Shown piece after piece: positions 5,029 to 57,692 of a DNA stretch of 64,000 nt; position 1 is the stretch's first letter, and every line of letters begins with the position of its first letter. A model generated the notes under the pieces. It searched no databases. It was given only the letters and a program-made list of their open reading frames with translations, and had not been told where the DNA came from. The position numbers were made by a program, and so were the translations under genes. The stretch is from a virus: positions 32,001-96,000 of IMG/VR virus record IMGVR_UViG_3300027779_000011, one strand, 5' to 3'.

Positions 5029-5104
<76 letters not shown>

Positions 5105-21773: not shown

Positions 21774-21815
21774 AATGGCATGGTGGAGCAAAACTCTGCT
21801 ATGCCATTTTTTTTT
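21774..21815 (+). terminator. rho-independent terminator
   Basis: AATGGCATGGTGGAG/CTCTGCTATGCCATT stem plus long T-run. Confidence 0.85.
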
Positions 21816-22530: not shown

Positions 22531-23991
22531 ATGTCAAAGGATAAATATTCTGAAGATCATTTTATAGAGGTAGCTGGTTCTGCTGGCAACAGTACTCTAT
22601 ACGTTTCAAACAATATTAATGTGCTCCACGAAGTGTCCTCTCGAAGTCTCGAAACAACCTTAATAACTACTAATGATCTGATCGTCGAGGATGACGCATC
22701 GTTTGGTACGGATACAGATAGTGGGAAGTTTACTGTTAGTAATTCTGATATTGACCTCTCTGGATGCGAGTTCGTGGGCTCTATTGATTTTGATTCGAAC
22801 CTTAAAAGCTTCGACTTTATGTCTAGGGGCTTTACCAGCACAGAGTCGATTGATATAAAAATGGTAGGCTCAACAGGAACTTATCTGGCTCTATTCTCAG
22901 AAGGTGATGCTCACATATTTGCAGAAAGCTCAATGAAGATCTCGGCTGGGATGGAATCTGGGACTCTAAATTTGGTTTCTCAAGCTACTAGGGACTGGAC
23001 TATTTCCGATACCACCGAATATGCAGACGATGGGATGGGTGATAAAGATCTATTTCTACAGGCTGGTGAGAATGTAGTTATTCATTCCGAAGATAACATT
23101 GTTTTAAAATCTAAAGGAACCTCTACATCATCTCATGACATTAGAATAGTAAACTCAGCTGGTGGAACGTCTATACCATATGGGGCATCTTTGGGTGGCG
23201 GGTACTATGGAGCAATATCACCTATTCCAACGGAGTACAAGTATTCTAAATATAGAGATTGGACAAATGACACAGACGCCACCGGGTCAAGCAAGGTTAG
23301 AAATGACCATGCTAATAAGTATAAGACGTGGCCTTCATACTCTGGGAGATATCCAGATGGCTGGGTTACTCCAAAGCTAGAGGTCGGGTACACATGCTGG
23401 TCTGGTTTCGCCAAAGCAAGGGACTCCGGTGGATTGTGGACTGACAAGTGGAGTGATACCAAAAGTTGGATGATTGGTATTCCGCTACCTACTCTTTGGG
23501 ATGATGACGTTATTATAATGGGGATTAACTACACAGTTAAGAGGCTGAAGAATGTCTATAACAAATCAGATAACAGAAACTTAACCGGACTCGACTATGA
23601 TGGTTCAACTGGCACGCTTGAGTTCATAGGTGGCTTTATGCTTCCTGATTATAGGTATGTCAATTCTTTTGGTGATAGTGTTGAGGCGGGTGGCATACCC
23701 GACGAATCTGGTCGTCTTTCTCATGGTATGGGTGCTTATATCTCTAGGGAAGATCGGCCATCGGGCAGTCATAGTCGAGGAAACCATCTTATTATTCGAA
23801 TGGCAGCAGGTGGTGGGGATCATGAGTTTAATAGAGACTACGGAATAGACCCAGAAGGCGGCGGCACCACAACGTTAACTATCCCCATACTTGATGATGA
23901 CGGAAGCGACTCAGGAGCGACACATAGCATGGGAAATGTCATGGGGGTACAAGTAAAGGTTTTGATATTTTACACTAGAAAGGATTTGTAG
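22531..23991 (+). CDS. probable structural protein (beta-rich, tail/spike-like)
   Basis: GGAGG RBS; G/S/T/D-rich, beta-helix-like N-half. Confidence 0.55.
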   Translation: MSKDKYSEDHFIEVAGSAGNSTLYVSNNINVLHEVSSRSLETTLITTNDLIVEDDASFGTDTDSGKFTVSNSDIDLSGCEFVGSIDFDSNLKSFDFMSRGFTSTESIDIKMVGSTGTYLALFSEGDAHIFAESSMKISAGMESGTLNLVSQATRDWTISDTTEYADDGMGDKDLFLQAGENVVIHSEDNIVLKSKGTSTSSHDIRIVNSAGGTSIPYGASLGGGYYGAISPIPTEYKYSKYRDWTNDTDATGSSKVRNDHANKYKTWPSYSGRYPDGWVTPKLEVGYTCWSGFAKARDSGGLWTDKWSDTKSWMIGIPLPTLWDDDVIIMGINYTVKRLKNVYNKSDNRNLTGLDYDGSTGTLEFIGGFMLPDYRYVNSFGDSVEAGGIPDESGRLSHGMGAYISREDRPSGSHSRGNHLIIRMAAGGGDHEFNRDYGIDPEGGGTTTLTIPILDDDGSDSGATHSMGNVMGVQVKVLIFYTRKDL

Positions 23992-24116
23992 CATGGTAAG
24001 GAGTTATGAGACGGCTATATCAAGAAAGACAATTGTTATAGAACTGCTAATAATTTATGAAAAATCTAATAATTATCGTACCTATCTAATAGAGAAGTAG
24101 TTATTGGATTTATATA

Positions 24117-25076
24117 ATGGATTATCATTTAAATAAGCTGAATTCGCTTTACTTGCACCTTATTAGTAACGGATATATATATGGTGCTAATAGAGTATTG
24201 AGCTTTGCTATGGATTACATATCCACAAAGCCTATGGTTAAAACCTCAGTAAGAAAGAATAAGCTTCTTCACCTGCTTGGTCCGTCAGGAGGTAGGTCTG
24301 TTGGGATAGTATCTCCGTATAAATCACTTAATTCTAGAAAAGAAAATAAAAATAAATACCAAGAGCTGGTCAGGGATATTCAAACCATGGGTCTTGATAC
24401 TCTTGGTAACTTTTGGCATGGTTCATGGGAAGAGGATGTTGTTATAGATGATGATGGCGAATCTACAGACAGAAGGAGTCGGGTACAACCAATAGTTGAC
24501 AGAATCTTTCGAGGAACATCTGATAGAGCTTTGGCGGAATTAAGCGATTTTTCAGATGTAAGCGAGTCTGAAGAGGATGAGTTAAAGTCTCTTTCTGATG
24601 ACTATGAGGAGAGTGATGGTGAACTAATTAGTTTAAAAATTAGGCAGTCGAAGATACCAGCATGGTATGAGAAAAAATATGAGGGTCCGATATTCGAAAA
24701 CAAAGAGGGTAATAAATATATAAAGATACCAGCTTCTGAGCGTAGTGTTATAATAAAAGATATTTCTTTTGAACAAATCAAAAGCCTTTCTCAAAAGTAC
24801 GAACAGGATGCTTTTATATATAGAAGCTTAGACGGCGTAACCGGAATGTACTGGACTGGAGGGGAAAATGCAGGGCATGTTGAGTTAGCAACCCTTCCAG
24901 AAGAGGACTCTTCGGAGCTAAACACTGGGCTTAGTATAGACACTGGAAGATTATACACCAAGCAAAGGAGTAGGGGGAATCTCCCTTCTTTTGAATATAA
25001 CTTCTGGCAAAGAGATATGATTCCTTATGATGGTGAAATCACAAAGGATAATATAGATGCTTCACTGCTAAGATGA
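24117..25076 (+). CDS. SAM lyase (T3 gp0.3 SAMase)-like protein with acidic insertion
   Basis: IVSPYKS, N..Y..L, GSWEE, SERS, YEQDAFIYRS and TGMYW match, in order, T3 SAMase VSAFRS, GCYRE, EEKT, WEQDCVLVYKS and AGLVY (T3 sequence recalled from memory). Confidence 0.6.
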   Translation: MDYHLNKLNSLYLHLISNGYIYGANRVLSFAMDYISTKPMVKTSVRKNKLLHLLGPSGGRSVGIVSPYKSLNSRKENKNKYQELVRDIQTMGLDTLGNFWHGSWEEDVVIDDDGESTDRRSRVQPIVDRIFRGTSDRALAELSDFSDVSESEEDELKSLSDDYEESDGELISLKIRQSKIPAWYEKKYEGPIFENKEGNKYIKIPASERSVIIKDISFEQIKSLSQKYEQDAFIYRSLDGVTGMYWTGGENAGHVELATLPEEDSSELNTGLSIDTGRLYTKQRSRGNLPSFEYNFWQRDMIPYDGEITKDNIDASLLR

Positions 25077-25107
25077 GTTTTATAGCACGATACATTCAGG
25101 AGCCCAG

Positions 25108-25512
25108 GTGAGCATTAAAAATCCTAGTGCTGCGCTGCTGGATACGATTGAGCCATCAATCATTAGGGCGAAGAAAATTGCCTTACTTAGGTGCAAAGAA
25201 GAAAACAATATGGCGTTTTTATATAGGCATGAAAGTAAGTTCAGAATAGTATGGATGAAGCCTCCATCCGTTGAAGTGCCAGACAACATATCTAGAAAGT
25301 TTGTGAGAATTAACTTTTCAGGTTCAATGGATGTTTCGGAAATACTATTCAATATAGGAAGATATGATAGATCATATGACACAGATTTGTTTAGTTCAGA
25401 CGAACCAAGCACCATTTTGTATATGTATGGAAGTCACTGGAATCATATCTGTGAAGAAGTATTGGCCGGCTCTATAGCATTAGTCAGCGTAAAGGATATA
25501 TTTAAAAATTAG
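25108..25512 (+). CDS. hypothetical protein
   Basis: AGGAG RBS, GTG start, lies between the SAM-lyase-like gene and metK. Confidence 0.65.
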   Translation: MSIKNPSAALLDTIEPSIIRAKKIALLRCKEENNMAFLYRHESKFRIVWMKPPSVEVPDNISRKFVRINFSGSMDVSEILFNIGRYDRSYDTDLFSSDEPSTILYMYGSHWNHICEEVLAGSIALVSVKDIFKN

Positions 25513-25521
25513 GAGTATATA

Positions 25522-26721
25522 ATGTCGAATGAAAGTTATTTGTGGACCAGCGAATGTGTTGGTGCAGGGCATCCAGATAAGGTTGCAGACCAGATATCAG
25601 ATGCTGTTTTGGATTCATATTTATCGGAAGATAAAAATTCAAAAGTTGCTTGCGAGACAATGATTGCACCAGGGCTTATAGTTGTAGCTGGAGAGGTAAA
25701 TTCCAAGCTGAGACACCTTGATGTTAATGGTTTAGCAAAACAGGTTGTTTCTGATATTGGATATAATTCTAGAAATGGTTTTGATATAGACTCATGCAAG
25801 GTTATAAACGCAATTGGCTCTCAGTCAAATCAGATAAATAACGCAGTTGAAACAGAGGGTGTTGACTCCGGAGCGGGTGATCAGGGGATGATGTTTGGTT
25901 ACGCTACAAATGAAACGGATTCTTTCATGCCAACATCAATTGAGATTTCTAGGAAGATAACGAACTTCTTTGATCTGGCCAGAACTCAGGAGGGTGTAAC
26001 TATGCTTGAGCCTGACTTCAAAACACAGGTTACCCTAAGGTGTTCTGATGATGGCTCTCCAATCGCTGTCGATGCAGTTGTTATATCTTCGCAGCACAAG
26101 GCAGGGTACCAGCTGATAGAGGTAAGGGAAATGCTTAGGTCTTTAGTTAGAAATTGCGTTTCCGGTATGCCTAAAAAGCTATCAAGTCTTTTTACGAATG
26201 ATACAAGGTACTTGCTAAACCCATCTGGATTATGGACCCTTGGTGGTCCAGCCGCAGATACGGGTCTTACTGGAAGAAAGATTGTTGTTGATAACTATGG
26301 CTCTGATTGCCAAATCGGAGGTGGTGCGTTCTCAGGAAAAGATCCATCTAAGGTAGATAGGTCTGCTGCTTACGCGGCTAGATATGTAGCCAAGAACATT
26401 GTTGCTTCTGGAATATCAGATAAAGTAAAGATTCAGCTTTCATATGCCATTGGAGTTTCAGAAGCTGTTTCTTTCAGGGTAGACACGATGGGGACTTCGA
26501 ATGTTAAATACGCTGATCACGAAATAGAAAGTATGGTATCCGAGGTATTTAAAACAACTCCTTCTAATATAATTGAAAAGCTACAGCTCAGAAACCCCAT
26601 ATATAGGAGCACGGCATCCAATGGTCATTTTGGAATTTCTCCTTATAGACATGATAATATTTCGTATTATACATGGGAGGAGCTTTCTGAGGTTGATGGC
26701 TTGAAGTTAATGTTCTTTTAA
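25522..26721 (+). CDS. metK: S-adenosylmethionine synthetase
   Basis: GHPDK, GAGDQG, GGGAFSGKD signatures. Confidence 0.97.
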   Translation: MSNESYLWTSECVGAGHPDKVADQISDAVLDSYLSEDKNSKVACETMIAPGLIVVAGEVNSKLRHLDVNGLAKQVVSDIGYNSRNGFDIDSCKVINAIGSQSNQINNAVETEGVDSGAGDQGMMFGYATNETDSFMPTSIEISRKITNFFDLARTQEGVTMLEPDFKTQVTLRCSDDGSPIAVDAVVISSQHKAGYQLIEVREMLRSLVRNCVSGMPKKLSSLFTNDTRYLLNPSGLWTLGGPAADTGLTGRKIVVDNYGSDCQIGGGAFSGKDPSKVDRSAAYAARYVAKNIVASGISDKVKIQLSYAIGVSEAVSFRVDTMGTSNVKYADHEIESMVSEVFKTTPSNIIEKLQLRNPIYRSTASNGHFGISPYRHDNISYYTWEELSEVDGLKLMFF

Positions 26722-26727
26722 AATAAT

Positions 26728-27122
26728 GGGGGCGTACTGGTTTCGACAGGGTAATAAGGTCGGATAGTGCAGGCGGTCTACGGTAACAGATGACCTAAAA
26801 ATTGTTACAAAAAACTATAATTGCCAATAACAATTATTATTACAGCAACGTCGCTTTAGCGGCTTAGTTGTCTGGGCCTCTAACGGCCTCGTCACCCAAT
26901 GTTAGATAACAGGTAGAGATCCTGCGAAATAAAAAAATCAAGATGGATACCTCATTTGTATCGGTGAAAGTCCGACTGTAGGGATGAGTGGACTTCTGAG
27001 GCTACATAGGAAGAGGGTTTTTGTGGCTACCTTGCTGATTTGGGAATACATCAGATAAGCTTGTGAATGACTTGAAGGAAGAGTTACTCTGGACGCGGAT
27101 TCGATTTCCGCCGCCTCCACCA
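26728..27122 (+). ncRNA. ssrA: tmRNA; tag (A)ANNNYYYSNVALAA at 26823-26867
   Basis: GGGGGCG/CGCCTCC acceptor with G3.U, GGTTTCGAC, TTCGATT T-loop, ACCA end, tag ORF ending ALAA-stop. Confidence 0.95.
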
Positions 27123-27186: not shown

Positions 27187-27747
27187 GTGAGAAAGAATAA
27201 AGCAAAGAAGATAATATTAACGTGCAATATTTGTGACACATCATTTGAGAAGCTATCGGGGGAGTACAAGAGGCAGACTAATAAAAATCCCGATAGATTA
27301 TGGTACTGCTCCTTATCGTGCGCCGGAATAAAAAATAAAAATAGCTTAGGTAAACACCTTGGAGTAGGAAACCCTAAGAGCTTAGTTTCGAATAATCGAA
27401 GAACTAAGCTTACAGAATTCAAGTGGTTTATGAAGGTTATAAGGCAAAGGTCTAAAGCTTTCAATATAGATGAGGCATATCTTAAGACTTTATGGGAAGG
27501 TCAGGGCGGCAAGTGTCCGCTTACCGGATGGGATCTGACCCTTCCTAAACACAGCTGCGATTGGTATAGTGATGATAATAAACATGTTCGCGCTTCCCTT
27601 GATCGGATTGATAGCTCTAAAGGCTATATTAAAGATAACGTAAGATTTATAGCGGTTATAGCAAATTATTGCAAAAATTCTTTTTCAGATGATGAAGTTA
27701 AGTTATTCTGTAAAGCTGTTGTTGAAAATAATAATTTAGCAAAATAA
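27187..27747 (+). CDS. free-standing HNH-like (beta-beta-alpha-Me) homing endonuclease with N-terminal Zn finger
   Basis: CNIC/YCSLSC N-terminus; Q.GKCPLTG, SLDRIDSSKGYIKDNV, N..K. Confidence 0.8.
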   Translation: MRKNKAKKIILTCNICDTSFEKLSGEYKRQTNKNPDRLWYCSLSCAGIKNKNSLGKHLGVGNPKSLVSNNRRTKLTEFKWFMKVIRQRSKAFNIDEAYLKTLWEGQGGKCPLTGWDLTLPKHSCDWYSDDNKHVRASLDRIDSSKGYIKDNVRFIAVIANYCKNSFSDDEVKLFCKAVVENNNLAK

Positions 27748-27775
27748 CTTTTAGAACATGAATAAGGAGCAAGTA

Positions 27776-28393
27776 ATGAAAGAAGAACTAGATAAAAAAC
27801 TAGTTAAGACATTTCCCCTCCTCTATGGTGATAGATATGCTTCGATGCAATCAACCTGTATGTGCTGGGGATTCCCCGGTGATGGTTGGTTTGATATCAT
27901 TTGGGATTTGTCCTCAAAACTTGAACCTCTTATTCAGAAGTTCATTGACGATAATCCTAATGCGCCTTGTTACGGATGTGGTTGCGCCAAGGAGCGTCAC
28001 TATGGATGGAAGAGTCAGAGCCCCGGCAAGTGCCTAGCAATCCACGTTGACCCAGATTCAGAAGAAGAACCACCTGGAAATTACAGAGCATGTTTCTGTG
28101 ATGGGTACAGCTCATCCAACCCTAAGGCTTCACAGGTGAAAGAGAAGTACGGGGGACTTAGGTTTTATATGACTTGTGACACTGACGAAATCTTTAGTCT
28201 GATTGAAGAGGCCGAGGCATTATCATACAAGACTTGTGAGGCATGTGGAGAACCGGGAGAAAAGAGGGGCGGCGGCTGGATTCATACCCTTTGCGATGAC
28301 TGCCATGAGAACTGGGATAAGATTCGATCAAAGAGATGGGAGAGAGAAGAGGAATGGAGTTACCAGATAAAGAAGAGCAAATGGCAAACTTAA
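27776..28393 (+). CDS. Cys-rich conserved phage protein, copy 1
   Basis: GDGW, QVKEKYGGLRFY, TCEACG, TLCDDC; start approximate. Confidence 0.8.
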   Translation: MKEELDKKLVKTFPLLYGDRYASMQSTCMCWGFPGDGWFDIIWDLSSKLEPLIQKFIDDNPNAPCYGCGCAKERHYGWKSQSPGKCLAIHVDPDSEEEPPGNYRACFCDGYSSSNPKASQVKEKYGGLRFYMTCDTDEIFSLIEEAEALSYKTCEACGEPGEKRGGGWIHTLCDDCHENWDKIRSKRWEREEEWSYQIKKSKWQT

Positions 28394-30314: not shown

Positions 30315-30890
30315 ATGAAGGAAGAGCTAGATAAAAAACTTGTTAAGGCGTTCCCACTTCTCTATGGAGATAGGCATGGTCCAATACGGTCAACAGCTAT
30401 GTGCTGGGGCTTCGCATGTTCAGACGGGTGGTTTGATATAGTTTGGGATTTGTCCTCAAAACTTGAACCGCTTATTCAGAAGTTTATTGACGACAACCCC
30501 AACATGTCCTGTTGGGATTGTGGCTGTGACAAGAACCGGCACTACGGATGGAAACATATTCCCGGTAAGTGTCTGGTAATACACGTCGATATAGATTCAG
30601 AAGAAGAGCCACCAAACAACTACCTCGCCTGTCATTGCGAAAAGTATATGGCATCTCACCCAAGAGCCGCTCAGGTAAAAGAGAAGTTTGGAGGGCTTAG
30701 GTTCTACATGACATGCGCCAACGACGAAATCTTCAATCTGATCGAAAAGGCAGAAACGCTATCCTACAAAACTTGCGAGGAATGTGGAAAGCCGGGAGAA
30801 GAGAGGAACGTCGGCTGGATTCATACCCTTTGCGATTATTGTCATGAGAAATGGGATAAGATTCGATCAAGAAGATGGGAAGAAGAATGA
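30315..30890 (+). CDS. Cys-rich conserved phage protein, copy 2
   Basis: Colinear, highly similar paralog of 27776-28393. Confidence 0.8.
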   Translation: MKEELDKKLVKAFPLLYGDRHGPIRSTAMCWGFACSDGWFDIVWDLSSKLEPLIQKFIDDNPNMSCWDCGCDKNRHYGWKHIPGKCLVIHVDIDSEEEPPNNYLACHCEKYMASHPRAAQVKEKFGGLRFYMTCANDEIFNLIEKAETLSYKTCEECGKPGEERNVGWIHTLCDYCHEKWDKIRSRRWEEE

Positions 30891-42837: not shown

Positions 42838-42883
42838 GGCTCTACTAATTTAATATAAAGTATTGTATTTTAATGAGGTTATA

Positions 42884-43546
42884 ATGAATAAAAAGACTGC
42901 ACAATTAAAGCCGCCAAACTGGGACCCCGATATTCTGCCAAAGTTAAAGCAGATAAACTATGGTTCTCAAGAGGGTGAGATAAAGAGAATTTTAAACGAT
43001 CCAAGTAAAATTATATTTGACGCAACCTCTCCATCGGATAATCCCAATGCTTCTGCTTGGGTCACAACCGATGATTTGAAAGATGGAAAAATTGATGCGG
43101 TTCATATAAACGCAACAAAGATTCCAAAACCGGGGGATGGCTTTGAACAAATGGCCAATCAAATAATCGCATCAATTTCAGCATTGTTATCTCATGAAGT
43201 CGGACACATTGAAGACTTCAGAGAGGAGCTTTATGAATCAGGACAAGACCCGTTTCCGGGTGGAGAGGCTGTAGCTGAAGAAGCACAAAGACAACAGGAG
43301 CAAAGAGCAATGTTAGCATTAGAACAAATGGCGTCAGCAAAGAGTACTTTGGTGAAGCTTTCAAATGATCTAGATGGTTCTGGTAATGGAAAGATTGCAG
43401 ATAGTATAGATAAATTATTATATGTTATCTCAAAAGAGGAAGTCAGTATAAATAAGACGGCCATACAAAAAGATGATGACGTGTTGGCAGAAGAAGTGTT
43501 TATGTTTAATGACTCATTTTATAAGAAACCATTCGGAAGGATGTGA
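42884..43546 (+). CDS. zincin-like metallopeptidase with cargo motif
   Basis: HEVGH; N-terminal KKTA; C-terminal LVKLSNDLDGSG...ADSID; GAGG RBS. Confidence 0.7.
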   Translation: MNKKTAQLKPPNWDPDILPKLKQINYGSQEGEIKRILNDPSKIIFDATSPSDNPNASAWVTTDDLKDGKIDAVHINATKIPKPGDGFEQMANQIIASISALLSHEVGHIEDFREELYESGQDPFPGGEAVAEEAQRQQEQRAMLALEQMASAKSTLVKLSNDLDGSGNGKIADSIDKLLYVISKEEVSINKTAIQKDDDVLAEEVFMFNDSFYKKPFGRM

Positions 43547-43568: not shown

Positions 43569-45863
43569 ATGGGTGATATAAAAACCATGAAGAAGAAAAC
43601 CGTAGAACAAGAGAATGAGCTTGGAGATACTCCGACTGATGCGATAGCTGGTATGCACATGCCAGATCCCGAAGGTTCGTGGAGAGGCTCCGATCCGGGA
43701 GAGAATAGCTATACTTATGATAAGAAGCAGATTGCATACCATGAAAGACGCCTGACCGGGAGAAAAAGAAAGGAAAATGGTTTATCAAAAGGGGCAAGAG
43801 GTCTTTTGGATATGCAAACGGAACAGGGAAAGTCCGGTGAATATTTTGAAGAGGATGAGACCGGGTTATTTGGCAATGAATCTCCTGAAGATTTACCTAC
43901 TAATAAACCAGATAGAAATATAAGATATGAATCATCTACCGGCAGCTCAGACGTAGATCTGTCTGATTTTTCGTTCTTGGGGTTTGGAAAAGAATCAAAA
44001 AGGAATTATGAAATGAACAATGAATTAATCAAGCTATCAAACTTATTAGACGAGATCGGAAGCGTTAATGCTGCGGATAGAATAGATCTTATGATTATAA
44101 AGGAAGCGGTAACTACGCCTTCTGGGTGGAGTTCACGTCCTAGCTCTAGTGCCTCTACGTCTCAGCAGAATCTTCATCGCGCTTGTACTGCATATTATAC
44201 AGCAATAGATACTATGGAGTCTCAGAATTATTACAGTGGAGGCGACGAAGGTGCTGCCGAGGATGTTATAAATGCAGTATGGGCAAGATATAATGCCTTT
44301 GACGGCTGGGGTGATAACGATGATGCACTTCCAAATGCACTTATTAGCGCAGCTCGTTCGGCTGAGCCAAGTCTTACATCAAGACCTGAGGGTTATTCTT
44401 CATGGTTTGAAGCTGTTGTAAAAGAAGGGGACGTTAATTTTTCCAACGGAAACTCAGCCTTCTACGGTAATTCTGACGGATTTGCAATAGACGCCAAGAA
44501 TTTTTGGGGGAAAATGAAGAGTGCAATCAAAAAAAACAGGGCAGCCGAAACAGCAGCCGAAACAGCAGCGGCAACAGGAGGAACCGCTCTCCAAGATGAT
44601 ATGGACCCTGAAGATAAGATGGGAGATGCTCCCTTTTTCTACCTTCTTACTGAAGCACAAAAGACCACTGCTGAACAGCCCGAGGCAGATTTCTTAAGAC
44701 TAGAATGGGGAGCATCTGAAACACCCCCTCAGTGGAGAATACAGTTTAGAAAAATGCGTGATCTTTCTGTGTGGCTAGAGGCCAATTCAGAAAAGAGAAG
44801 CCTTGTAACGGAAGAGTGGATTGAAGAATTATCAGAACTTGGGAATGGGGCATACAAGGATGGGTTTCAATGGACTACGGGAGCTGTGACAGAGTATGCC
44901 AACAAAGGAAAGATTCCGCATCCAGGGAAGGGATACGCTGCTTATTACGACTCTTGGGAAGGGTGGACTGACTCATGGACTGTAATGTATGACCTTCTGC
45001 GTAACCAAGAAACAGTAAAGGCCTCTGGCGAATTTGCACAACAACAAGCAGAAGGAAGATCGGGCGGCGGCGGCGGTGGTGGTGGCAGTAGAGCCGTTGC
45101 TTCTATCGTTGATTTATCAGGTGGAGTAATAACTGATTCTGATACTGGTAACAAATTCAGAACATGGGTCTATTCAGATGCTGCGAGGGCTAGGTGGGCC
45201 TCTAGTAATAACTTTGATAGTTCTCACACAGTGTTTAATTCCAGAGCTATGAGGAGTGCTTGGGCGACTTATGGTAATCAGTATAAACAATATTTGCAAG
45301 TCGCTGGACCGGACGAGTTACTTGCTGGCTCCGGAACCGGAAGTGTGGCAAGGCGAGAATCTGTGGATGATTTACTTGGGGAGACAGCTCCACAAGCACC
45401 TCCAGTTGCAGCTCCACAAGCACCTCCAATTGCATCTCCACAAGCACCTCCAGTTGCAGCGACTCAGCCAGAAGCAGGGTGGACTATCGAGAATGTTGGT
45501 TCCGCAGTAGATGAGTTATATAGAGGGGTTCGGATTGGCAAAAACAGTGAAAGGAAAGTAAGAAGAACGACTGCTAGAGCACTAAGAGATTTGGGCCGTG
45601 GTTCTACCCAGGAGATTCTAAACTACTTGTCTGGAAGAACACCTCCATCATCTGCTACGATGAGATACAGCGAAGTTTATAACGCTCTAATGGACCTAAA
45701 GGAACAGCTATCAGGAGGCCGCAAATCAAGGGCGGCTAGGATTGATAGGATTAATGCCTTGTCGAAAACCAGTGACGATGTCATAGATACTTATAAGAAA
45801 GCCGCAAACAACCGAAGAAGAAGGGTGTCTGAGGATAGAAAAAAGCTTTACGATAGTATCTGA
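43569..45863 (+). CDS. large probable virion-internal protein
   Basis: NELIKLSNLLDEIG..AADRID...IKEA motif; G-rich and APQAPP linkers; basic C-tail. Confidence 0.7.
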   Translation: MGDIKTMKKKTVEQENELGDTPTDAIAGMHMPDPEGSWRGSDPGENSYTYDKKQIAYHERRLTGRKRKENGLSKGARGLLDMQTEQGKSGEYFEEDETGLFGNESPEDLPTNKPDRNIRYESSTGSSDVDLSDFSFLGFGKESKRNYEMNNELIKLSNLLDEIGSVNAADRIDLMIIKEAVTTPSGWSSRPSSSASTSQQNLHRACTAYYTAIDTMESQNYYSGGDEGAAEDVINAVWARYNAFDGWGDNDDALPNALISAARSAEPSLTSRPEGYSSWFEAVVKEGDVNFSNGNSAFYGNSDGFAIDAKNFWGKMKSAIKKNRAAETAAETAAATGGTALQDDMDPEDKMGDAPFFYLLTEAQKTTAEQPEADFLRLEWGASETPPQWRIQFRKMRDLSVWLEANSEKRSLVTEEWIEELSELGNGAYKDGFQWTTGAVTEYANKGKIPHPGKGYAAYYDSWEGWTDSWTVMYDLLRNQETVKASGEFAQQQAEGRSGGGGGGGGSRAVASIVDLSGGVITDSDTGNKFRTWVYSDAARARWASSNNFDSSHTVFNSRAMRSAWATYGNQYKQYLQVAGPDELLAGSGTGSVARRESVDDLLGETAPQAPPVAAPQAPPIASPQAPPVAATQPEAGWTIENVGSAVDELYRGVRIGKNSERKVRRTTARALRDLGRGSTQEILNYLSGRTPPSSATMRYSEVYNALMDLKEQLSGGRKSRAARIDRINALSKTSDDVIDTYKKAANNRRRRVSEDRKKLYDSI
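45387..45458 (+). repeat. 24-bp tandem repeat x3 (APQAPPVA)
   Basis: GCTCCACAAGCACCTCCAGTTGCA-like units. Confidence 0.9.
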
Positions 45864-45907: not shown

Positions 45908-47473
45908 ATGCAAAACGAATTAATCAAACTTTCAAAGACCTTAAGCGGTCTTGGCCATAAGAAGCACTCCAGTATAGTCAGAGGCCTTGGAGTACCAAGC
46001 GTCAGCATTATGCTTTCAAAGTTTGCAGGAGCTCCAAACCCAGGACTTATAAAGCTCATCAATGGAAATGCTGCTAATAGCAAAAGTCAGGTAGGAATTA
46101 ATCTCAGCTATAAAGGCAATGACGATCTTGGAGAGTGGGCAACGGGTTCGGATGAAATATCCATTGCAACCCAGGAAGTGCTGACAGACTTTATAGATAT
46201 GGTAAAAGGGATAAATGCTGATACCCCAGAAAAAGCCTATGAAACACGCGCAAAGATAAAGGCTATCACGGTAAGTGTTTATACTGATACCGCAGGTAAT
46301 GATGCTAATAACGAAGCTCGTAGTCAAAGGCGAGCAGATATAATTGTTGCAGCCCTAAGGCAAGATGTTCCTGGGGTAACCTTCACAGGGAAGGGTATGG
46401 GAGAGGATGCGGAAAAGAATAAGAGATACCTTAACTTCCAAATTACCGAAATAGAAGCTAGGCAAGCTGTAATGGATTCCCATGTAGTGGCCCTTAATGA
46501 TGGTGGAACAGCGTACTGGTTTCTAAGACAAGGTAACTACTTTGTTGTAGATGTTACCAAGCCAGATGCCCATAGAGCCGCTACCAAAGCCGAATCTGCA
46601 ATCCAGAAAGACAGCACTGGTAAAGGGACCGGTGATGCTGGAAATGCTCTTGTTTATTTTGGAGCAGAGGCTGCTATTGCAGCTGGGGCAATTAGCCCGG
46701 TAGAAAATCCAGCCGGAACAATTTATATGGTAGATAGCGCGAAGCTTACGGGTGCCGCAGCCATGATGAGCTTAGAGGATACAATTCAGTCACCAACAAC
46801 TCCATCTGAAAGAGCCACTAAGCTTGGTGCGTCTGCCGAGGCAGGACAGGTTGCTAGGACCGAAAGTGAAGCTTGGCCAGCAGAGGTCGTAAAAGATTCA
46901 ATAAGAAGACTCCTTGAGATCAGAGAACCATTGGAGATAGACCCAGATGGAGGTGGCTCACAGCCCGCTGCTCAAGCCTTAGCTGCACATCGCGTTAGGC
47001 GCAATATGAGGAGAATGTTCAAGACTAATATGGAAAAAAACCCTGACGGGTTTGACCGTACTGTTCAGAAATTGGCTCAGGAAATGACAGCTAGTCCAAA
47101 CTTTGTATATAATCCAGATGAAGGTGCCGCAGGATCTAACATAGGAATGGTGTTTATGGCGGCGATGCAATCAGAGAGTGTGGCCCAGTCTACTGGTGGC
47201 TCTGCTTCGTCAAGAGCAAAGAACTCAAGAAAGGGTAGGCGAAGAATGGAGAAGGCTAAAGCCAGAGCACGAAAAAGGTCTGATAGAGAGAGATATGATA
47301 ACCCGCTAATTCCAAACTTTATGGAGCGTGGCCAGAAGTTTAACGAGAGAGGCGAGAGAAAGGCTTCCTCAAGCACAATAGAAAGCCTTCATAAGATTTC
47401 AATGAAAAAGTCATCTGCAAAGTCTGCCGCTAAGAAAAGAAGAGAAAGAATTAAAAAAGAAAATATGCGATAA
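45908..47473 (+). CDS. OmpA-like peptidoglycan-binding domain protein with cargo leader
   Basis: NELIKLSKTLSGLG leader; YTD..G....N...SQRRA....L...GKGMGE. Confidence 0.7.
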   Translation: MQNELIKLSKTLSGLGHKKHSSIVRGLGVPSVSIMLSKFAGAPNPGLIKLINGNAANSKSQVGINLSYKGNDDLGEWATGSDEISIATQEVLTDFIDMVKGINADTPEKAYETRAKIKAITVSVYTDTAGNDANNEARSQRRADIIVAALRQDVPGVTFTGKGMGEDAEKNKRYLNFQITEIEARQAVMDSHVVALNDGGTAYWFLRQGNYFVVDVTKPDAHRAATKAESAIQKDSTGKGTGDAGNALVYFGAEAAIAAGAISPVENPAGTIYMVDSAKLTGAAAMMSLEDTIQSPTTPSERATKLGASAEAGQVARTESEAWPAEVVKDSIRRLLEIREPLEIDPDGGGSQPAAQALAAHRVRRNMRRMFKTNMEKNPDGFDRTVQKLAQEMTASPNFVYNPDEGAAGSNIGMVFMAAMQSESVAQSTGGSASSRAKNSRKGRRRMEKAKARARKRSDRERYDNPLIPNFMERGQKFNERGERKASSSTIESLHKISMKKSSAKSAAKKRRERIKKENMR

Positions 47474-54088: not shown

Positions 54089-55162
54089 ATGGATGTTAAG
54101 TTTACTAAAAAAATCCTAAAGGAAATGCCTAAGGATAAGTCAGTCATGCTTCATGCAAAGCATGGTGTCGGAAAATCATCTGTTGTTCGTCAGGTTGCCG
54201 AAGAACTAGCAGAAGAAACAAATGAGCCTTATGGCTTTTGGGACGTAAGACTGTCCCAATGTGAGGTCGGAGATATCAAAGGCTTGCCGGATGCAGACCG
54301 TGAAGCTAAGGTTATCAGGTTCTTGAAGCAAGAGTGGTGGCCGCGAGATAAGGATAGTAAGGGTATCTTGTTTTTTGATGAGATTAACCGTGCGTCAAAA
54401 GATGTCCTTCAAGCCGTGTTTGAGATATGTTTGGACCGACGATTGGATGGAGAAGAACTGCCGGAAGGCTGGAGGGTTGTTGCTGCGGTAAACTCTGATG
54501 ATGATTATGATGTTCAGGAGCTTGATCCAGCACTTCATGATCGGTGGTTTCATATTGATTTCGACCCGTCTGTTTCTGACTGGACTCTATGGGCCAGAGA
54601 GAATGGTGTTGAGCAGTCGATAATTGAGTTTGTTTCAAGGAACCACAATCTTCTAGACCCCCCAATTGGGAACCTTGAGGCAGGTAGGACGTATCCATCC
54701 CGCAGAAGTTGGGTTTCATTGTCAGACTCCATCATGGGGATGGGCTTATTGGCAGAGGGTAATGATGCTATTCTTACGCAAGTTACCAAGGGCTGGGTCG
54801 GTCGAGAGATTGCGGTTATGTTTCCGAAGTTTGTTGCAAATGAGTTTACTCAGCTTAGGCCGGAAGATGTCTTGGATACCTTTTCAAAGGTAGAGTCTAA
54901 GATTGAAGCAGCATGTGATGATATTGAGGTTATTGCGGCACTAGCACGAAATGTTGTGCAAGAGGTCAATGAACGAAGTGCTATCAAAATGAAGGACAAG
55001 CAGAAGGAAGCTCTGAAGAAGTTCTTTATGGTGCTTCCAAATGATGTAGCATCTGACACCTGGGTTGCCCTTCTAGCTGGGAAGAAGAGTAAGAAGCTAG
55101 TTATGATGTGGCAAGCTGATACAGCGTTTGGAGAACACCTGAAGCGTATTTATCAAGTCTGA
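54089..55162 (+). CDS. MoxR-like AAA+ ATPase
   Basis: HGVGKS Walker A, FFDEINR Walker B, LDPALHDRW, PSRRSW. Confidence 0.9.
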   Translation: MDVKFTKKILKEMPKDKSVMLHAKHGVGKSSVVRQVAEELAEETNEPYGFWDVRLSQCEVGDIKGLPDADREAKVIRFLKQEWWPRDKDSKGILFFDEINRASKDVLQAVFEICLDRRLDGEELPEGWRVVAAVNSDDDYDVQELDPALHDRWFHIDFDPSVSDWTLWARENGVEQSIIEFVSRNHNLLDPPIGNLEAGRTYPSRRSWVSLSDSIMGMGLLAEGNDAILTQVTKGWVGREIAVMFPKFVANEFTQLRPEDVLDTFSKVESKIEAACDDIEVIAALARNVVQEVNERSAIKMKDKQKEALKKFFMVLPNDVASDTWVALLAGKKSKKLVMMWQADTAFGEHLKRIYQV

Positions 55163-55171
55163 TTTCACCAA

Positions 55172-55201
55172 GGGTACACTTGGCGCGCTCCAAGTGTACC
55201 C
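55172..55201 (+). promoter_or_regulatory. intercistronic 12-bp stem-loop
   Basis: GGGTACACTTGG/CCAAGTGTACCC perfect stem. Confidence 0.7.
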
Positions 55202-55226
55202 AATATTTTTATCATTAGGAGGTTTT

Positions 55227-56438
55227 ATGTTGAATACATCAGTTGCTCCATCAGTAGGGCCACAAGTCGTAGATGATGTTAGTCTAAAAAGTAGTGTCAA
55301 TTCTCGTCAAATTAGAGACAGAATTGAAGGCGATATTGCAAAGCTAATTACATTTCAGCCCTTGTACGGCATCGTGTTTATGAGCTTGAATAAGATCGAG
55401 TCAAGGAAGATTCCAACGCTTGCCGTTGGAGTTACTAGGCGAGTTGATCTTGCTCTATATTACAATCCAGACTTTATAGATGGCCTTAGTCGGGCAGAGT
55501 TGAGGGCGGTGTTGAAGCATGAGGCTTTGCACGTTTTGCTTCATCATATCTCTAGAGCAAAGCACTTCTCTTATAATATGCGTGGGTATAATATTGCGGC
55601 AGATATGGCAATTAATCAGCATATCGAAGGATTGCCGGAGGGCTGCTTTTACCCAAGCACCCTTAATCTTCCAGATTCCGAATCCTCTGAGTGGTATTAT
55701 GAAAGCTTAAAGAAGGAGTCAGATGAAAATGGCCATGATATAAGCGAGGTTGGCGAAGGAAAGGGCAAGCTCGTAGATGACCACTCTATGTGGCAGGATA
55801 TGGATGATGATATTATCAAAGAAAAGATTCGTCATATAGCAGAAAAGGCCATAAAGGAACAGGAGAAGAAGGGTTGGGGCGATGTAGGAGCAGATCTGGC
55901 AGGAAAGATTATAGCCGCAAACAAACCTGTTGTAAACTGGAAGAGGGAGGTTCGATACTTTATTAACAAGCTTGTCATGATGGGGCGAAAGAGTACTCGT
56001 ATGCGGCCCAATCGTCGCTATGGATATGTTAACCCCGGAAGCAAAAGGGACTATACTAGTAGGCTTTTAATTGGGGTTGATACATCTGGCTCTGTAAGTG
56101 ATGAGCAGCTAAAGATGTTCTTCACAGAAATAAATGGAATGATCGATCATGTGCAGGTAGACGTTATTCAGTTTGATTACAATTTACAGGGAGAGCCTGA
56201 GCCTTTTAGAAAGAAGTCTAAGGATATTAATATCATAGGAAGGGGCGGGACTAATTTTGAGCCAGTAATTAAGCTAGCAGATGAGATGAAGTACGATGGT
56301 CTTATTATATTCACAGATGGTTACGCGCCATTCCCAACAAAGCCAAAGGCCCGTATGCTTTGGGCTGTATCAGAAAGAGACAGCGATGTTAATTTTCCTT
56401 ATGGAAAGAAAGTAGTTGTAGCAGAAAAAAGAGTTTGA
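55227..56438 (+). CDS. DUF2201-type metallopeptidase + vWA protein
   Basis: HEALH, NIAADMAIN, DTSGS, GRGGT, TDGY; GGAGG RBS. Confidence 0.88.
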   Translation: MLNTSVAPSVGPQVVDDVSLKSSVNSRQIRDRIEGDIAKLITFQPLYGIVFMSLNKIESRKIPTLAVGVTRRVDLALYYNPDFIDGLSRAELRAVLKHEALHVLLHHISRAKHFSYNMRGYNIAADMAINQHIEGLPEGCFYPSTLNLPDSESSEWYYESLKKESDENGHDISEVGEGKGKLVDDHSMWQDMDDDIIKEKIRHIAEKAIKEQEKKGWGDVGADLAGKIIAANKPVVNWKREVRYFINKLVMMGRKSTRMRPNRRYGYVNPGSKRDYTSRLLIGVDTSGSVSDEQLKMFFTEINGMIDHVQVDVIQFDYNLQGEPEPFRKKSKDINIIGRGGTNFEPVIKLADEMKYDGLIIFTDGYAPFPTKPKARMLWAVSERDSDVNFPYGKKVVVAEKRV

Positions 56439-56447
56439 CGTGTAGCT

Positions 56448-56488
56448 TTTGGGTAGCATACCATTTGTGTGCTACCCAAATTTTTTTT
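56448..56488 (+). terminator. rho-independent terminator
   Basis: TTTGGGTAGCA/TGCTACCCAAA plus T8. Confidence 0.85.
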
Positions 56489-56498
56489 AGGGAGATAG

Positions 56499-57692
56499 AT
56501 GTTAATTTTGAATAACAAGATAACTAGCAAGTTGTCTACATTGATGGTTGCTTTTGATGCAGGTTCTAGGATTGAGGGGGATGACTTTAATAGCGGAATA
56601 TCCCATATGCTTGAGCATTGCATTTTCAAGGGAACTACAAATAGGGATTGGCTAGAGGTACAAAGAGAGTTTGCGTTCATAGGGGCAAGGCCAAACGCAT
56701 TTACTTCAAGTGAGATGGTTTGTTATCATGTTACTGTTCCATATGAAAACTTAGAATCTGCGGCAGATATATTATCTGATATTGTATTCAACTCTACAAT
56801 TCCAGATGAAGAATTCATCAAGGAAAAAGAGGTCGTAAAGGAAGAGGAGATATCAAGAAAAGACGATGTTGACGGATACATGTGGGAGGCGTTTTCAAAA
56901 GAGTGGTTCTCCAACCATCTGTCTGTTCCGGTTATAGGCACAAAGGATTCTATTGATAGATTCACAAGAGATGAGGTGAATTCATTTTACAACAAATATT
57001 GTGATAAAAAGGGTGCTATAGTATCCTTAGCGAGTTCTCTTAACAAGAGGGCTTCAAAGCAGTTATTAAACAAATACTTTGGAAAGTCAACCGGAAGATT
57101 CAGAAAGAACTATTCTTTGGATGACTCAACATATGAGCAGTCTAGAACCGTATTGCTTTCGAAAGATGGAATAGAACACTCCTATGTTTGGATGGCATAT
57201 CCGGGGATAGTCACCGGTAGTGATTGGGCTGCGGCCTCTCATGTTCTTATGTCAATTTTTGGAAGCGGCATGGACAGCAGACTCTTTACAGAGGTTAGGG
57301 AAAGAAGCGGCTTGGTTTATGGAATAGGGTCCGGTATGCAATCTTTTCAGGATGGCTCAGTGTGTCTTATTGACTTCTCATCAAGAGAGAAGAATGTGGA
57401 AAAGGCATTGTCAATCGTAGATGGGCAAGTTGACTTGATAAAGTCAGAACGAATTACAGATGAGGAGCTTGAGCGGGCTAAGAACAAAATACGTTCTTCT
57501 GTCTATTCTTTAAATGAGAATAGCTTTGGCGTTGCCTTTTCTAATTTAAAATCAAGATTTAACTCGACTTCAAATATAGAGGAACTTATGAACAAAATAA
57601 ACTCCGTAACAAAAGATGATATAATTGATGTTGCAAATATTGTTTTTGACAAAGATAGGCAGCTAACGATGGTATGTAAAAATAATAATTAG
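56499..57692 (+). CDS. M16 family zinc peptidase
   Basis: HMLEH inverted zincin, NAFTS, SRLFTEVRE..GLVY. Confidence 0.92.
   Translation: MLILNNKITSKLSTLMVAFDAGSRIEGDDFNSGISHMLEHCIFKGTTNRDWLEVQREFAFIGARPNAFTSSEMVCYHVTVPYENLESAADILSDIVFNSTIPDEEFIKEKEVVKEEEISRKDDVDGYMWEAFSKEWFSNHLSVPVIGTKDSIDRFTRDEVNSFYNKYCDKKGAIVSLASSLNKRASKQLLNKYFGKSTGRFRKNYSLDDSTYEQSRTVLLSKDGIEHSYVWMAYPGIVTGSDWAAASHVLMSIFGSGMDSRLFTEVRERSGLVYGIGSGMQSFQDGSVCLIDFSSREKNVEKALSIVDGQVDLIKSERITDEELERAKNKIRSSVYSLNENSFGVAFSNLKSRFNSTSNIEELMNKINSVTKDDIIDVANIVFDKDRQLTMVCKNNN

Follow-up and report, generated by a model that had tools for sequence, protein, structure and literature searches.

A divergent T3-type SAM lyase relative paired with a phage SAM synthetase gene in a clade of marine giant phages

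S-adenosylmethionine (SAM) lyases are among the few broad anti-defence enzymes of phages, acting against type I restriction, bacteriophage exclusion (BREX) and possibly the SAM-AMP signalling of clustered regularly interspaced short palindromic repeats (CRISPR) systems. To our knowledge, their genes have so far been observed standing alone, among the early genes of small phages. Here, we discuss a SAM-lyase-family gene of 319 codons (24117-25076, plus strand) with a T3-type fold, which lies close to a phage gene for SAM synthetase (MetK) in a 64,000-nucleotide stretch of phage DNA (hereafter, the window), namely bases 32001-96000 of the 158.7-kb IMG/VR record IMGVR_UViG_3300027779_000011. Because this record was rated as only 47% complete by CheckV, we refer to its source as a giant phage. 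The enzyme family itself is already known and curated; what is new is a domain inserted in the specificity hairpin, an N-terminal leader, and a fixed pairing with MetK and an orphan open reading frame (ORF).

Among the closest described systems is gp0.3 of phage T3 (PDB 7OCK, 8BB1; PF23780), which, in its structure solved at 2.8 Å by cryo-electron microscopy, forms a nine-stranded barrel with two helices on the outside and is monomeric, in contrast to the Svi3-3 trimer (bioRxiv 10.1101/2023.02.27.530186). The window protein resembles gp0.3 in its barrel and two helices (126-134 of about 150 residues aligned), its collinear motifs, its phage origin and a functional connection to MetK. It differs in being only ~10-13% identical, in having Trp in place of Tyr, in carrying a 94-residue insert and a 45-residue leader, and in lacking the residues by which T3 contacts MetK. 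Furthermore, the window gene adjoins the MetK of a giant marine phage, whereas the small phage T3 has no MetK and encodes gp0.3 as its first early gene. The environmental phage lyases Svi3-3/Orf1 (PDB 6ZM9, 6ZNB) have in common with the window protein a strictly conserved Gly, Glu and Gln, together with an aromatic residue placed on the sulfonium (PMC7877911); the fold match is weak (Z score 5.5-5.6). Svi3-3, however, assembles as a PII-like trimer whose active sites lie between the subunits, whereas additional C-terminal strands, as in the monomeric barrel of the T3 type, are present in the window protein. The SAM-AMP lyases (a CRISPR-associated enzyme of C. botulinum and the phage candidate AcrIIIB4) belong to the same superfamily; in them the loop before the catalytic Glu sets the substrate, and the phage enzyme has an added domain (PMC12255297). 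These enzymes are trimeric and PII-like, however, their added domain is an N-terminal fusion and not a loop insertion, and none of them was among the listed fold matches of the window protein.

Two further families touch on this locus. DUF3293 (PF11697), a family without described function whose model spans 73 positions, was the best direct Pfam match of the window protein, although below the cut-off, and was matched by 33 of the 34 aligned members of the lyase-like family. Phage MetK auxiliary genes (phrog_1569; Streptococcus Javan and S. suis prophages) likewise encode full-length, apparently active synthetases in phages with methyltransferases, but none of 80 such loci had a lyase-family neighbour, whereas here MetK is fixed behind a lyase relative and an orphan ORF and before a transfer-messenger RNA (tmRNA) gene. 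In the literature, we found no description of a gene pair made up of a phage SAM synthetase and a SAM hydrolase or lyase, nor of a paired "destroy and supply" module, and no mention of DUF3293; a survey of polyvalent proteins did not mention SAM lyases.

Family, fold and active site of the lyase-like protein

We investigated the family membership of the window protein by profile searches. An exhaustive HMMER search yielded 51 cluster representatives which, apart from a few orthologs, were ~200 residues long, lacked residues 107-200 and matched the window protein in two stretches. The insert-free homologs scored 36.8 (P0008), 34.9, 32.7 and 30.5 bits against the S-AdoMet_lyase model PF23780 (cut-off, 28 bits) and 26-39 bits against DUF3293 (cut-off, 25 bits), and PF23780 was matched by 29 of the 34 aligned members. 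In turn, the insert-free profile A3 gave two separate matches to the window gene, one on either side of the insert, at residues 38-106 (E = 9e-11) and at residues 207-317 (E = 6e-19). The homology of the window protein to bona fide S-AdoMet_lyase members was therefore found via intermediate sequences and profiles. Direct searches gave little: the only match among PDB sequences was a chance one (3kws, E = 0.34), tblastn of the protein against 50,697 phage records returned no match, and a PF23780 profile search of the phage's own genome was empty. Two orthologs (P0002 and P0003) scored 13.3 and 11.9 bits against PF23780, over the first 30-44 model positions only.

Profile-profile alignment (hhalign) of the family with T3 gp0.3 gave an E-value of 3e-5 and was motif-for-motif, pairing E208 with E68, Q230-D231 with Q94-D95, and G102-S-W104 with G-C-Y. 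An earlier annotation of the window made by a model from the letters alone (hereafter, the sequence-only reading) had equated E208 and Q230 with E68 and Q94 of T3, which both the family profile and the hhalign alignments bore out. The motifs on which it relied are all present (IVSPYKS at residue 64, GSWEE at 102, SERS at 207, YEQDAFIYRS at 228 and TGMYW at 242), and the T3 motifs with which it compared them (VSAFRS, GCYRE, EEKT, WEQD and AGLVY) occur in the same order in the T3 sequence (L017:402-857).

An AlphaFold2 model built on the family alignment (predicted local distance difference test score [pLDDT], 84.4; predicted template modelling score, 0.73) had T3 SAM lyase as its top Foldseek match (probability 0.98, E = 0.04). 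When the model was compared with 48,161 PDB representative chains by VIA, 7ock_L was the sole match above Z 8 (Z 9.8; root-mean-square deviation, 3.6; 134/152 residues aligned), and this structural alignment covered model residues 51 to 296-297. The match to 8bb1_E was closer still (Z 10.9; root-mean-square deviation, 3.6; 126/147 residues aligned), the next unrelated chain was at Z 5.9, and trimeric Svi3-3 (6zm9, 6znb) was at Z 5.5-5.6. Through its matches to 8bb1_E and 7ock_L, the model conforms to the T3-type barrel of about nine strands with two outer helices. The lyase fold that the sequence-only reading had proposed to look for was thus found; its companion expectation, a pocket at a trimer interface formed by E208 and Q230, was borrowed from Svi3-3 and is not apt, because T3-type lyases are monomeric barrels. 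As the hhalign E-value and a fold search that singles out T3 SAM lyase both indicate, the likeness to T3 is beyond chance. Based on the homology through intermediates, the T3 alignment and the fold match, we assign ORF 24117-25076, from sequence and model, as a divergent T3 gp0.3-type member of the phage SAM-lyase superfamily. With it, ~50 clusters of large-phage proteins that are labelled DUF3293 or unannotated belong to the T3-type SAM-lyase fold.

The lyase core is split into two halves, one of residues 46-106 (24252-24434, plus strand) containing S66/Y68, N77 and G102-S-W104, which aligns with T3 residues 12-57, and one of residues 201-319 (24717-25073, plus strand) containing E208, S210 and Q230-D231, which aligns with T3 E68 and Q94-D95. 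Across the 34-member alignment, E208 and N77 were invariant, and W104, S210, Q230, Y68, G92, G240, G243 and Y245 were nearly so. In Svi3-3, Gly56, Glu69 and Gln104 are the only strictly conserved residues, Tyr58 makes the stacking contact with the sulfonium, and the E69Q variant is almost inactive (PMC7877911); similarly, the T3 E68Q/Q94A double mutant is inactive (bioRxiv 10.1101/2023.02.27.530186). The T3 and Svi3-3 equivalents of the conserved residues bind SAM (PMC7877911; bioRxiv 10.1101/2023.02.27.530186), and by alignment the SAM-holding residues of the window protein are G102, W104, E208 and Q230-D231, with S210 counted among the retained substrate-binding positions as well. The aromatic position was Trp family-wide and Tyr in one member (P0026); Trp104 could also provide a cation-pi contact. 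Hence, the active site looks intact as far as the alignment can tell. Conversely, the T3 residues that contact MetK (T4, N9, Q103, T104 and H105) are not kept, "SQTHTAG" being paired with "SLDGVTG" by hhalign, and the T3 N-terminal tail has no counterpart in the window protein. The alignment nevertheless leaves room for MetK binding through other surfaces.

The inserted domain, residues 107-200 (94 residues; 24435-24716, plus strand), lies in the beta2-beta3 hairpin equivalent to the T-loop, between the G-x-aromatic motif and E208, so that the hairpin ending in the key Glu carries it; it is missing from the ~50 shorter homologs. In the model, the insert has a predicted fold of two helices and several strands (pLDDT, 82-94). 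Among five orthologs its identity was 44-76%, with the fixed motifs GxSDRA, RQSKIP and GPI, compared with 47-69% in the C-terminal part of the core and 70-86% in the catalytic parts. The insert appears to be under selection, with an identity similar to that of the C-terminal part of the core. The sequence-only reading had described ~90 extra, strongly acidic residues in place of a short loop: a net-acidic insert (26 Asp/Glu versus 14 Lys/Arg, net −12) does occur at that place, but it is a folded, conserved domain and not a loop replacement. Its suggestion that the insert mimics DNA is not favoured, because the acidity is poorly conserved, the acidic run being much weaker in the most distant ortholog. 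Beyond the orthologs, the exhaustive search of representatives revealed no relative of the insert; in the Atlas, a feature search for look-alikes was empty and the structure rows reached a template modelling score of at most 0.36.

Two observations on the wider family can be added. Several insert-free relatives (P0008, P0011, P0017, P0035, P0046 and P0053 are listed) share a C-terminal extension, G-K-K-V.N-P-N...T-R..Y-P.V.V-S-T-A-L-K...F...L.Q-E...W. In addition, two proteins of ~800 residues have the lyase domain fused to DUF7178, so the family is modular; the longer members added only DUF7178 or unannotated regions, and none was fused to MetK or a methyltransferase.

Conservation of the cassette with MetK

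The order lyase-like gene, small ORF and MetK was found in 7 of 7 related marine loci (L001, L002 and L012-L016) from different samples, with the genes mostly overlapping or abutting. Compared with the window, the lyase was 57-80% identical, the small ORF 29-46% and MetK 85-90%. The linkage to MetK in relatives had been set beforehand as a test that could refute the proposal, and it held in all of them. As these seven loci were found starting from the lyase or the small ORF, a reverse search from MetK was made against ascertainment bias, covering a 4-kb range in 80 other IMG/VR phage MetK loci. A lyase-family gene occurred in 0 of the 80, and four positive controls were recovered. From the other side, MetK was present in 0 of 5 other phage records with insert-free lyase relatives, and none was seen in two neighbourhoods of such relatives. 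MetK linkage is thus specific to the insert-bearing clade and stable within it, and the cassette is confined to a single clade of marine giant phages, the related sequences being from Tara and other marine metagenomes.

In the window, the lyase-like gene heads a conserved cassette that is probably co-transcribed. It is followed by the small conserved ORF (134 residues; 25108-25512, plus strand), with a GTG start and AGGAG upstream, then by the gene for MetK (399 residues; 25522-26721, plus strand) and, 6 nt past its stop codon, by the tmRNA gene (26728-27122, plus strand). The sequence-only reading was accurate on the gaps of 31, 9 and 6 nt, on an intact metK and on the tmRNA behind it; of its statement that no terminator is visible, the part concerning the spaces between the genes stood, whereas a weak terminator-like hairpin lies inside the lyase ORF (24972-24986). 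A strong terminator-like hairpin was located at 21774-21808 (15 pairs, then a T run), upstream of ORF 21891, and is the sole convincing terminator near the cassette. No SAM riboswitch was detected before the cassette at Rfam gathering scores.

The small ORF had no match in Pfam, PHROG or NCBIfam, and its homologs were found only in this cassette, with an identical copy on a 288-kb contig. Its predicted structure (pLDDT, 74) gave a best VIA Z of 3.3 and a best Foldseek E of 0.55. A complex prediction for the lyase-like protein and the small ORF scored 0.00, which is under the mark and counts neither way. MetK matched PF00438, PF02772 and PF02773 at full length, phrog_1569, and TIGR01034 at 446.8 bits (cut-off, 309.4). 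Although 85-90% identical among the related loci, it did not exceed 48% identity to the MetKs of 185,579 species genomes, with best matches in Bacteroidota, or 49% identity to the 80 other phage MetKs. Since no cellular MetK came closer, the phage MetK is a deep, old phage-specific lineage and not a recent capture. The tmRNA was identified by ARAGORN, with a tag peptide ending in ALAA, and by Rfam (RF00023; 122.1 bits, cut-off 47); in relative L012, a tmRNA (L012:2295-2640) also lies behind MetK, with a different tag peptide ending in ALAA. The phage methyltransferases named by the sequence-only reading were present as well, with genes at 5072 and 38294, a DNA N6/N4 methylase and another methyltransferase.

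Readings of the cassette

We rate the chances as about even that the protein is a divergent T3-type SAM lyase with two added modules, acting within a cassette that controls both the removal and the supply of SAM. The enzyme would most likely still cleave SAM to 5'-methylthioadenosine (MTA) and homoserine lactone, and through the cassette the phage could steer the SAM pool from both sides. The lyase would strip SAM from host defences, namely type I restriction-modification, BREX and SAM-AMP signalling, and the phage's own, very divergent MetK would supply SAM to the phage methyltransferases. Because joint expression of a SAM maker and a SAM breaker would amount to a futile cycle, control at the protein level would be needed; sequestration, gating or inhibition through the leader, the inserted domain or the small ORF might prevent such a make-and-break cycle. 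For a lyase relative, a permanent tie to the maker of its own substrate looks self-defeating in the absence of regulation. Provided that the enzyme is active, how a phage that needs SAM for its own methylases wields SAM destruction becomes a testable question, for which the leader, the insert and the orphan ORF are the three candidate means of control. In its most complete form, the proposal would be a three-gene, phage-run SAM control unit: a lyase gated by its insert, by a cleavable leader or by the orphan ORF, and perhaps delivered by the virion, together with a synthetase unaffected by the lyase, would starve SAM-dependent immunity (the same three defences) and keep the phage methyltransferases supplied. 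We consider this complete form unlikely.

Several points weigh against the lyase reading. The window protein itself did not match PF23780, which is explained by the 94-residue insert splitting the domain, and reached 21.1 bits against DUF3293 over residues 207-232 only. The aromatic position is held by Trp instead of the Tyr of the characterised enzymes, and a 94-residue domain beside the key Glu could alter the substrate or block the site. In addition, co-expression with MetK argues against plain SAM destruction.

One rival explanation, which builds on the virion delivery proposed by the sequence-only reading and differs from the preferred one only in how the futile cycle is avoided, is that the lyase is made late, enters the capsid by means of its leader (perhaps cut at K-x-S/A), is injected and destroys SAM, thereby blinding the defences, after which MetK rebuilds the pool. 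Sequestration in the prohead would explain the co-expression with MetK. The leader, residues 1-45 (24117-24251, plus strand), was modelled as a helical hairpin (helices 2-17 and 21-35) followed by a low-confidence linker with V-K-T-S (41-44), and it is conserved in the orthologs P0002, P0003 and P0006. The phage encodes a portable peptide of ~30 residues (L-I-K-L-A/S..L-D..G...A-D.I-D, usually followed by hydrophobic-K-x-A/S) that recurs in at least eight otherwise unrelated proteins, at N-terminal, internal or C-terminal positions. Three of the copies are in the window, in the genes at 42863-43546 (residues 158-200), 43569-45863 (residues 148-190) and 45908-47473 (residues 1-42); the others are outside it (G000:C1 19492-19764, 19754-20575, 20600-21181, 21186-22193, 30621-31022, 128023-129147 and 134061-134816). 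A hidden Markov model (HMM) of this tag, built from five copies, found three further proteins (E = 1e-10 to 3e-6) and one marginal match. The tag could be a targeting or processing signal.

The tag HMM did not score on the leader of the window protein (E = 16), but it matched the N-terminus of the lyase homolog P0004 (E = 4e-4); the lyase leaders aligned in register with the tag by hhalign (P = 0.005), and a leader HMM picked up two tag-cluster ORFs (E = 1e-4 and 4e-3). The leader is plausibly a diverged copy of the tag. The sequence-only reading had seen in the lyase the leader and KxS motif of putative packaged proteins; of this, a modest likeness remains at the profile-profile level, and the direct HMM score does not support it. 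Furthermore, K-x-A-L-R/K occurs at the leader-core junction in nearly all family members, many of which have an N-terminus of the "LIRLA" type. That stretch, however, is a helix in the model (47-54), the structural alignment with T3 starts inside it, at residue 51, and it may be part of the fold. Both capsid targeting by the tag and cleavage at K-x-A/S are suppositions, and only one uncultured record was matched in the phage collection. Virion packaging would be a coherent solution, but with a weak likeness to the tag as its basis, we regard it as improbable.

A second rival holds that the protein binds SAM or a SAM derivative without destroying SAM in bulk, either as a SAM-sensing or regulatory partner of MetK, with the insert as the contact surface, or as an enzyme for another substrate, such as the SAM-AMP of CRISPR type III-B systems, in which case it would be an anti-CRISPR. 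T3 SAM lyase physically binds MetK (PMC8406200; bioRxiv 10.1101/2023.02.27.530186), and tight co-expression with MetK is more readily understood for a partner than for an antagonist, but the residues by which T3 contacts MetK are those lost here, and the SAM-holding residues are invariant across the family, as for an enzyme. In related trimeric enzymes, the choice between SAM and SAM-AMP is made by the T-loop, at the end of which lies the key Glu, and one phage SAM-AMP lyase that carries an extra domain acts on SAM-AMP and not on SAM (PMC12255297); the insert of the window protein is in exactly the position equivalent to this loop. In addition, the best cellular matches of the phage MetK were in Bacteroidota, where CorA-type SAM-AMP systems are known (B. 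fragilis; PMC10600005). Against this, the fold agrees with the T3 type (Z about 10) and not with the trimeric Svi3-3/SAM-AMP lyase type (Z 5.5). A role as binder, regulator or SAM-AMP enzyme therefore seems doubtful to us.

Alternatively, MetK and the lyase-like enzyme could form a two-step pathway that turns methionine and ATP into MTA and homoserine lactone or another SAM cyclisation product, for salvage, signalling or a drain on methionine and ATP. Operon-like linkage of an enzyme and the maker of its substrate is typical of pathways, and other SAM-cyclising enzymes yield different products (PMC11794875). Nevertheless, the cassette has no downstream enzyme, the MTA phosphorylase/nucleosidase family (PF01048) was not found in the 159-kb record (~47% of the genome), and the insert-free relatives occur without MetK, which makes such a pathway very unlikely. 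Finally, a superficial resemblance of a protein unrelated to SAM lyase, to which the below-threshold direct Pfam matches and a Foldseek E of only 0.04 might point, is hardly credible in view of the transitive homology through ~50 intermediates that pass Pfam cut-offs, the unique fold match (Z 9.8-10.9) and the collinearity of all motifs.

Neighbouring genes and minor observations

Upstream of the lyase-like gene lies an ORF of 486 residues (22531-23991, plus strand), which had no match in Pfam, PHROG or NCBIfam. It is syntenic in relatives: in L001 and L002, homologs of 31-43% identity immediately precede the lyase gene. Between this ORF and the lyase gene, 66 nt upstream of the lyase start codon, is a TGCTAAT motif (24045-24051, plus strand). 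The sequence-only reading had pointed to this motif, and it is indeed present, but the window contains 14 copies against 15.9 expected, which is not above chance; we therefore rejected it as a promoter motif.

The tmRNA is followed by an HNH/endonuclease VII-like gene (27187-27747). The window also contains six transfer RNA genes and genes for chaperonins, beside the tmRNA and the methyltransferases. At 54089-57692, three adjacent genes encode a MoxR-like AAA_5 ATPase (54089), a DUF2201 metallopeptidase with a VWA-like domain (55194) and an M16 insulinase-type peptidase (56499), the last of which is a candidate processing protease for K-x-A/S sites. Moreover, the window holds two paralogous Cys-rich ORFs (27758-28393 and 30315-30890), the N-terminal halves of which are nearly identical (KEELDKKLVK.FPLLYGDR ... 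DLSSKLEPLIQKFIDDNPN).

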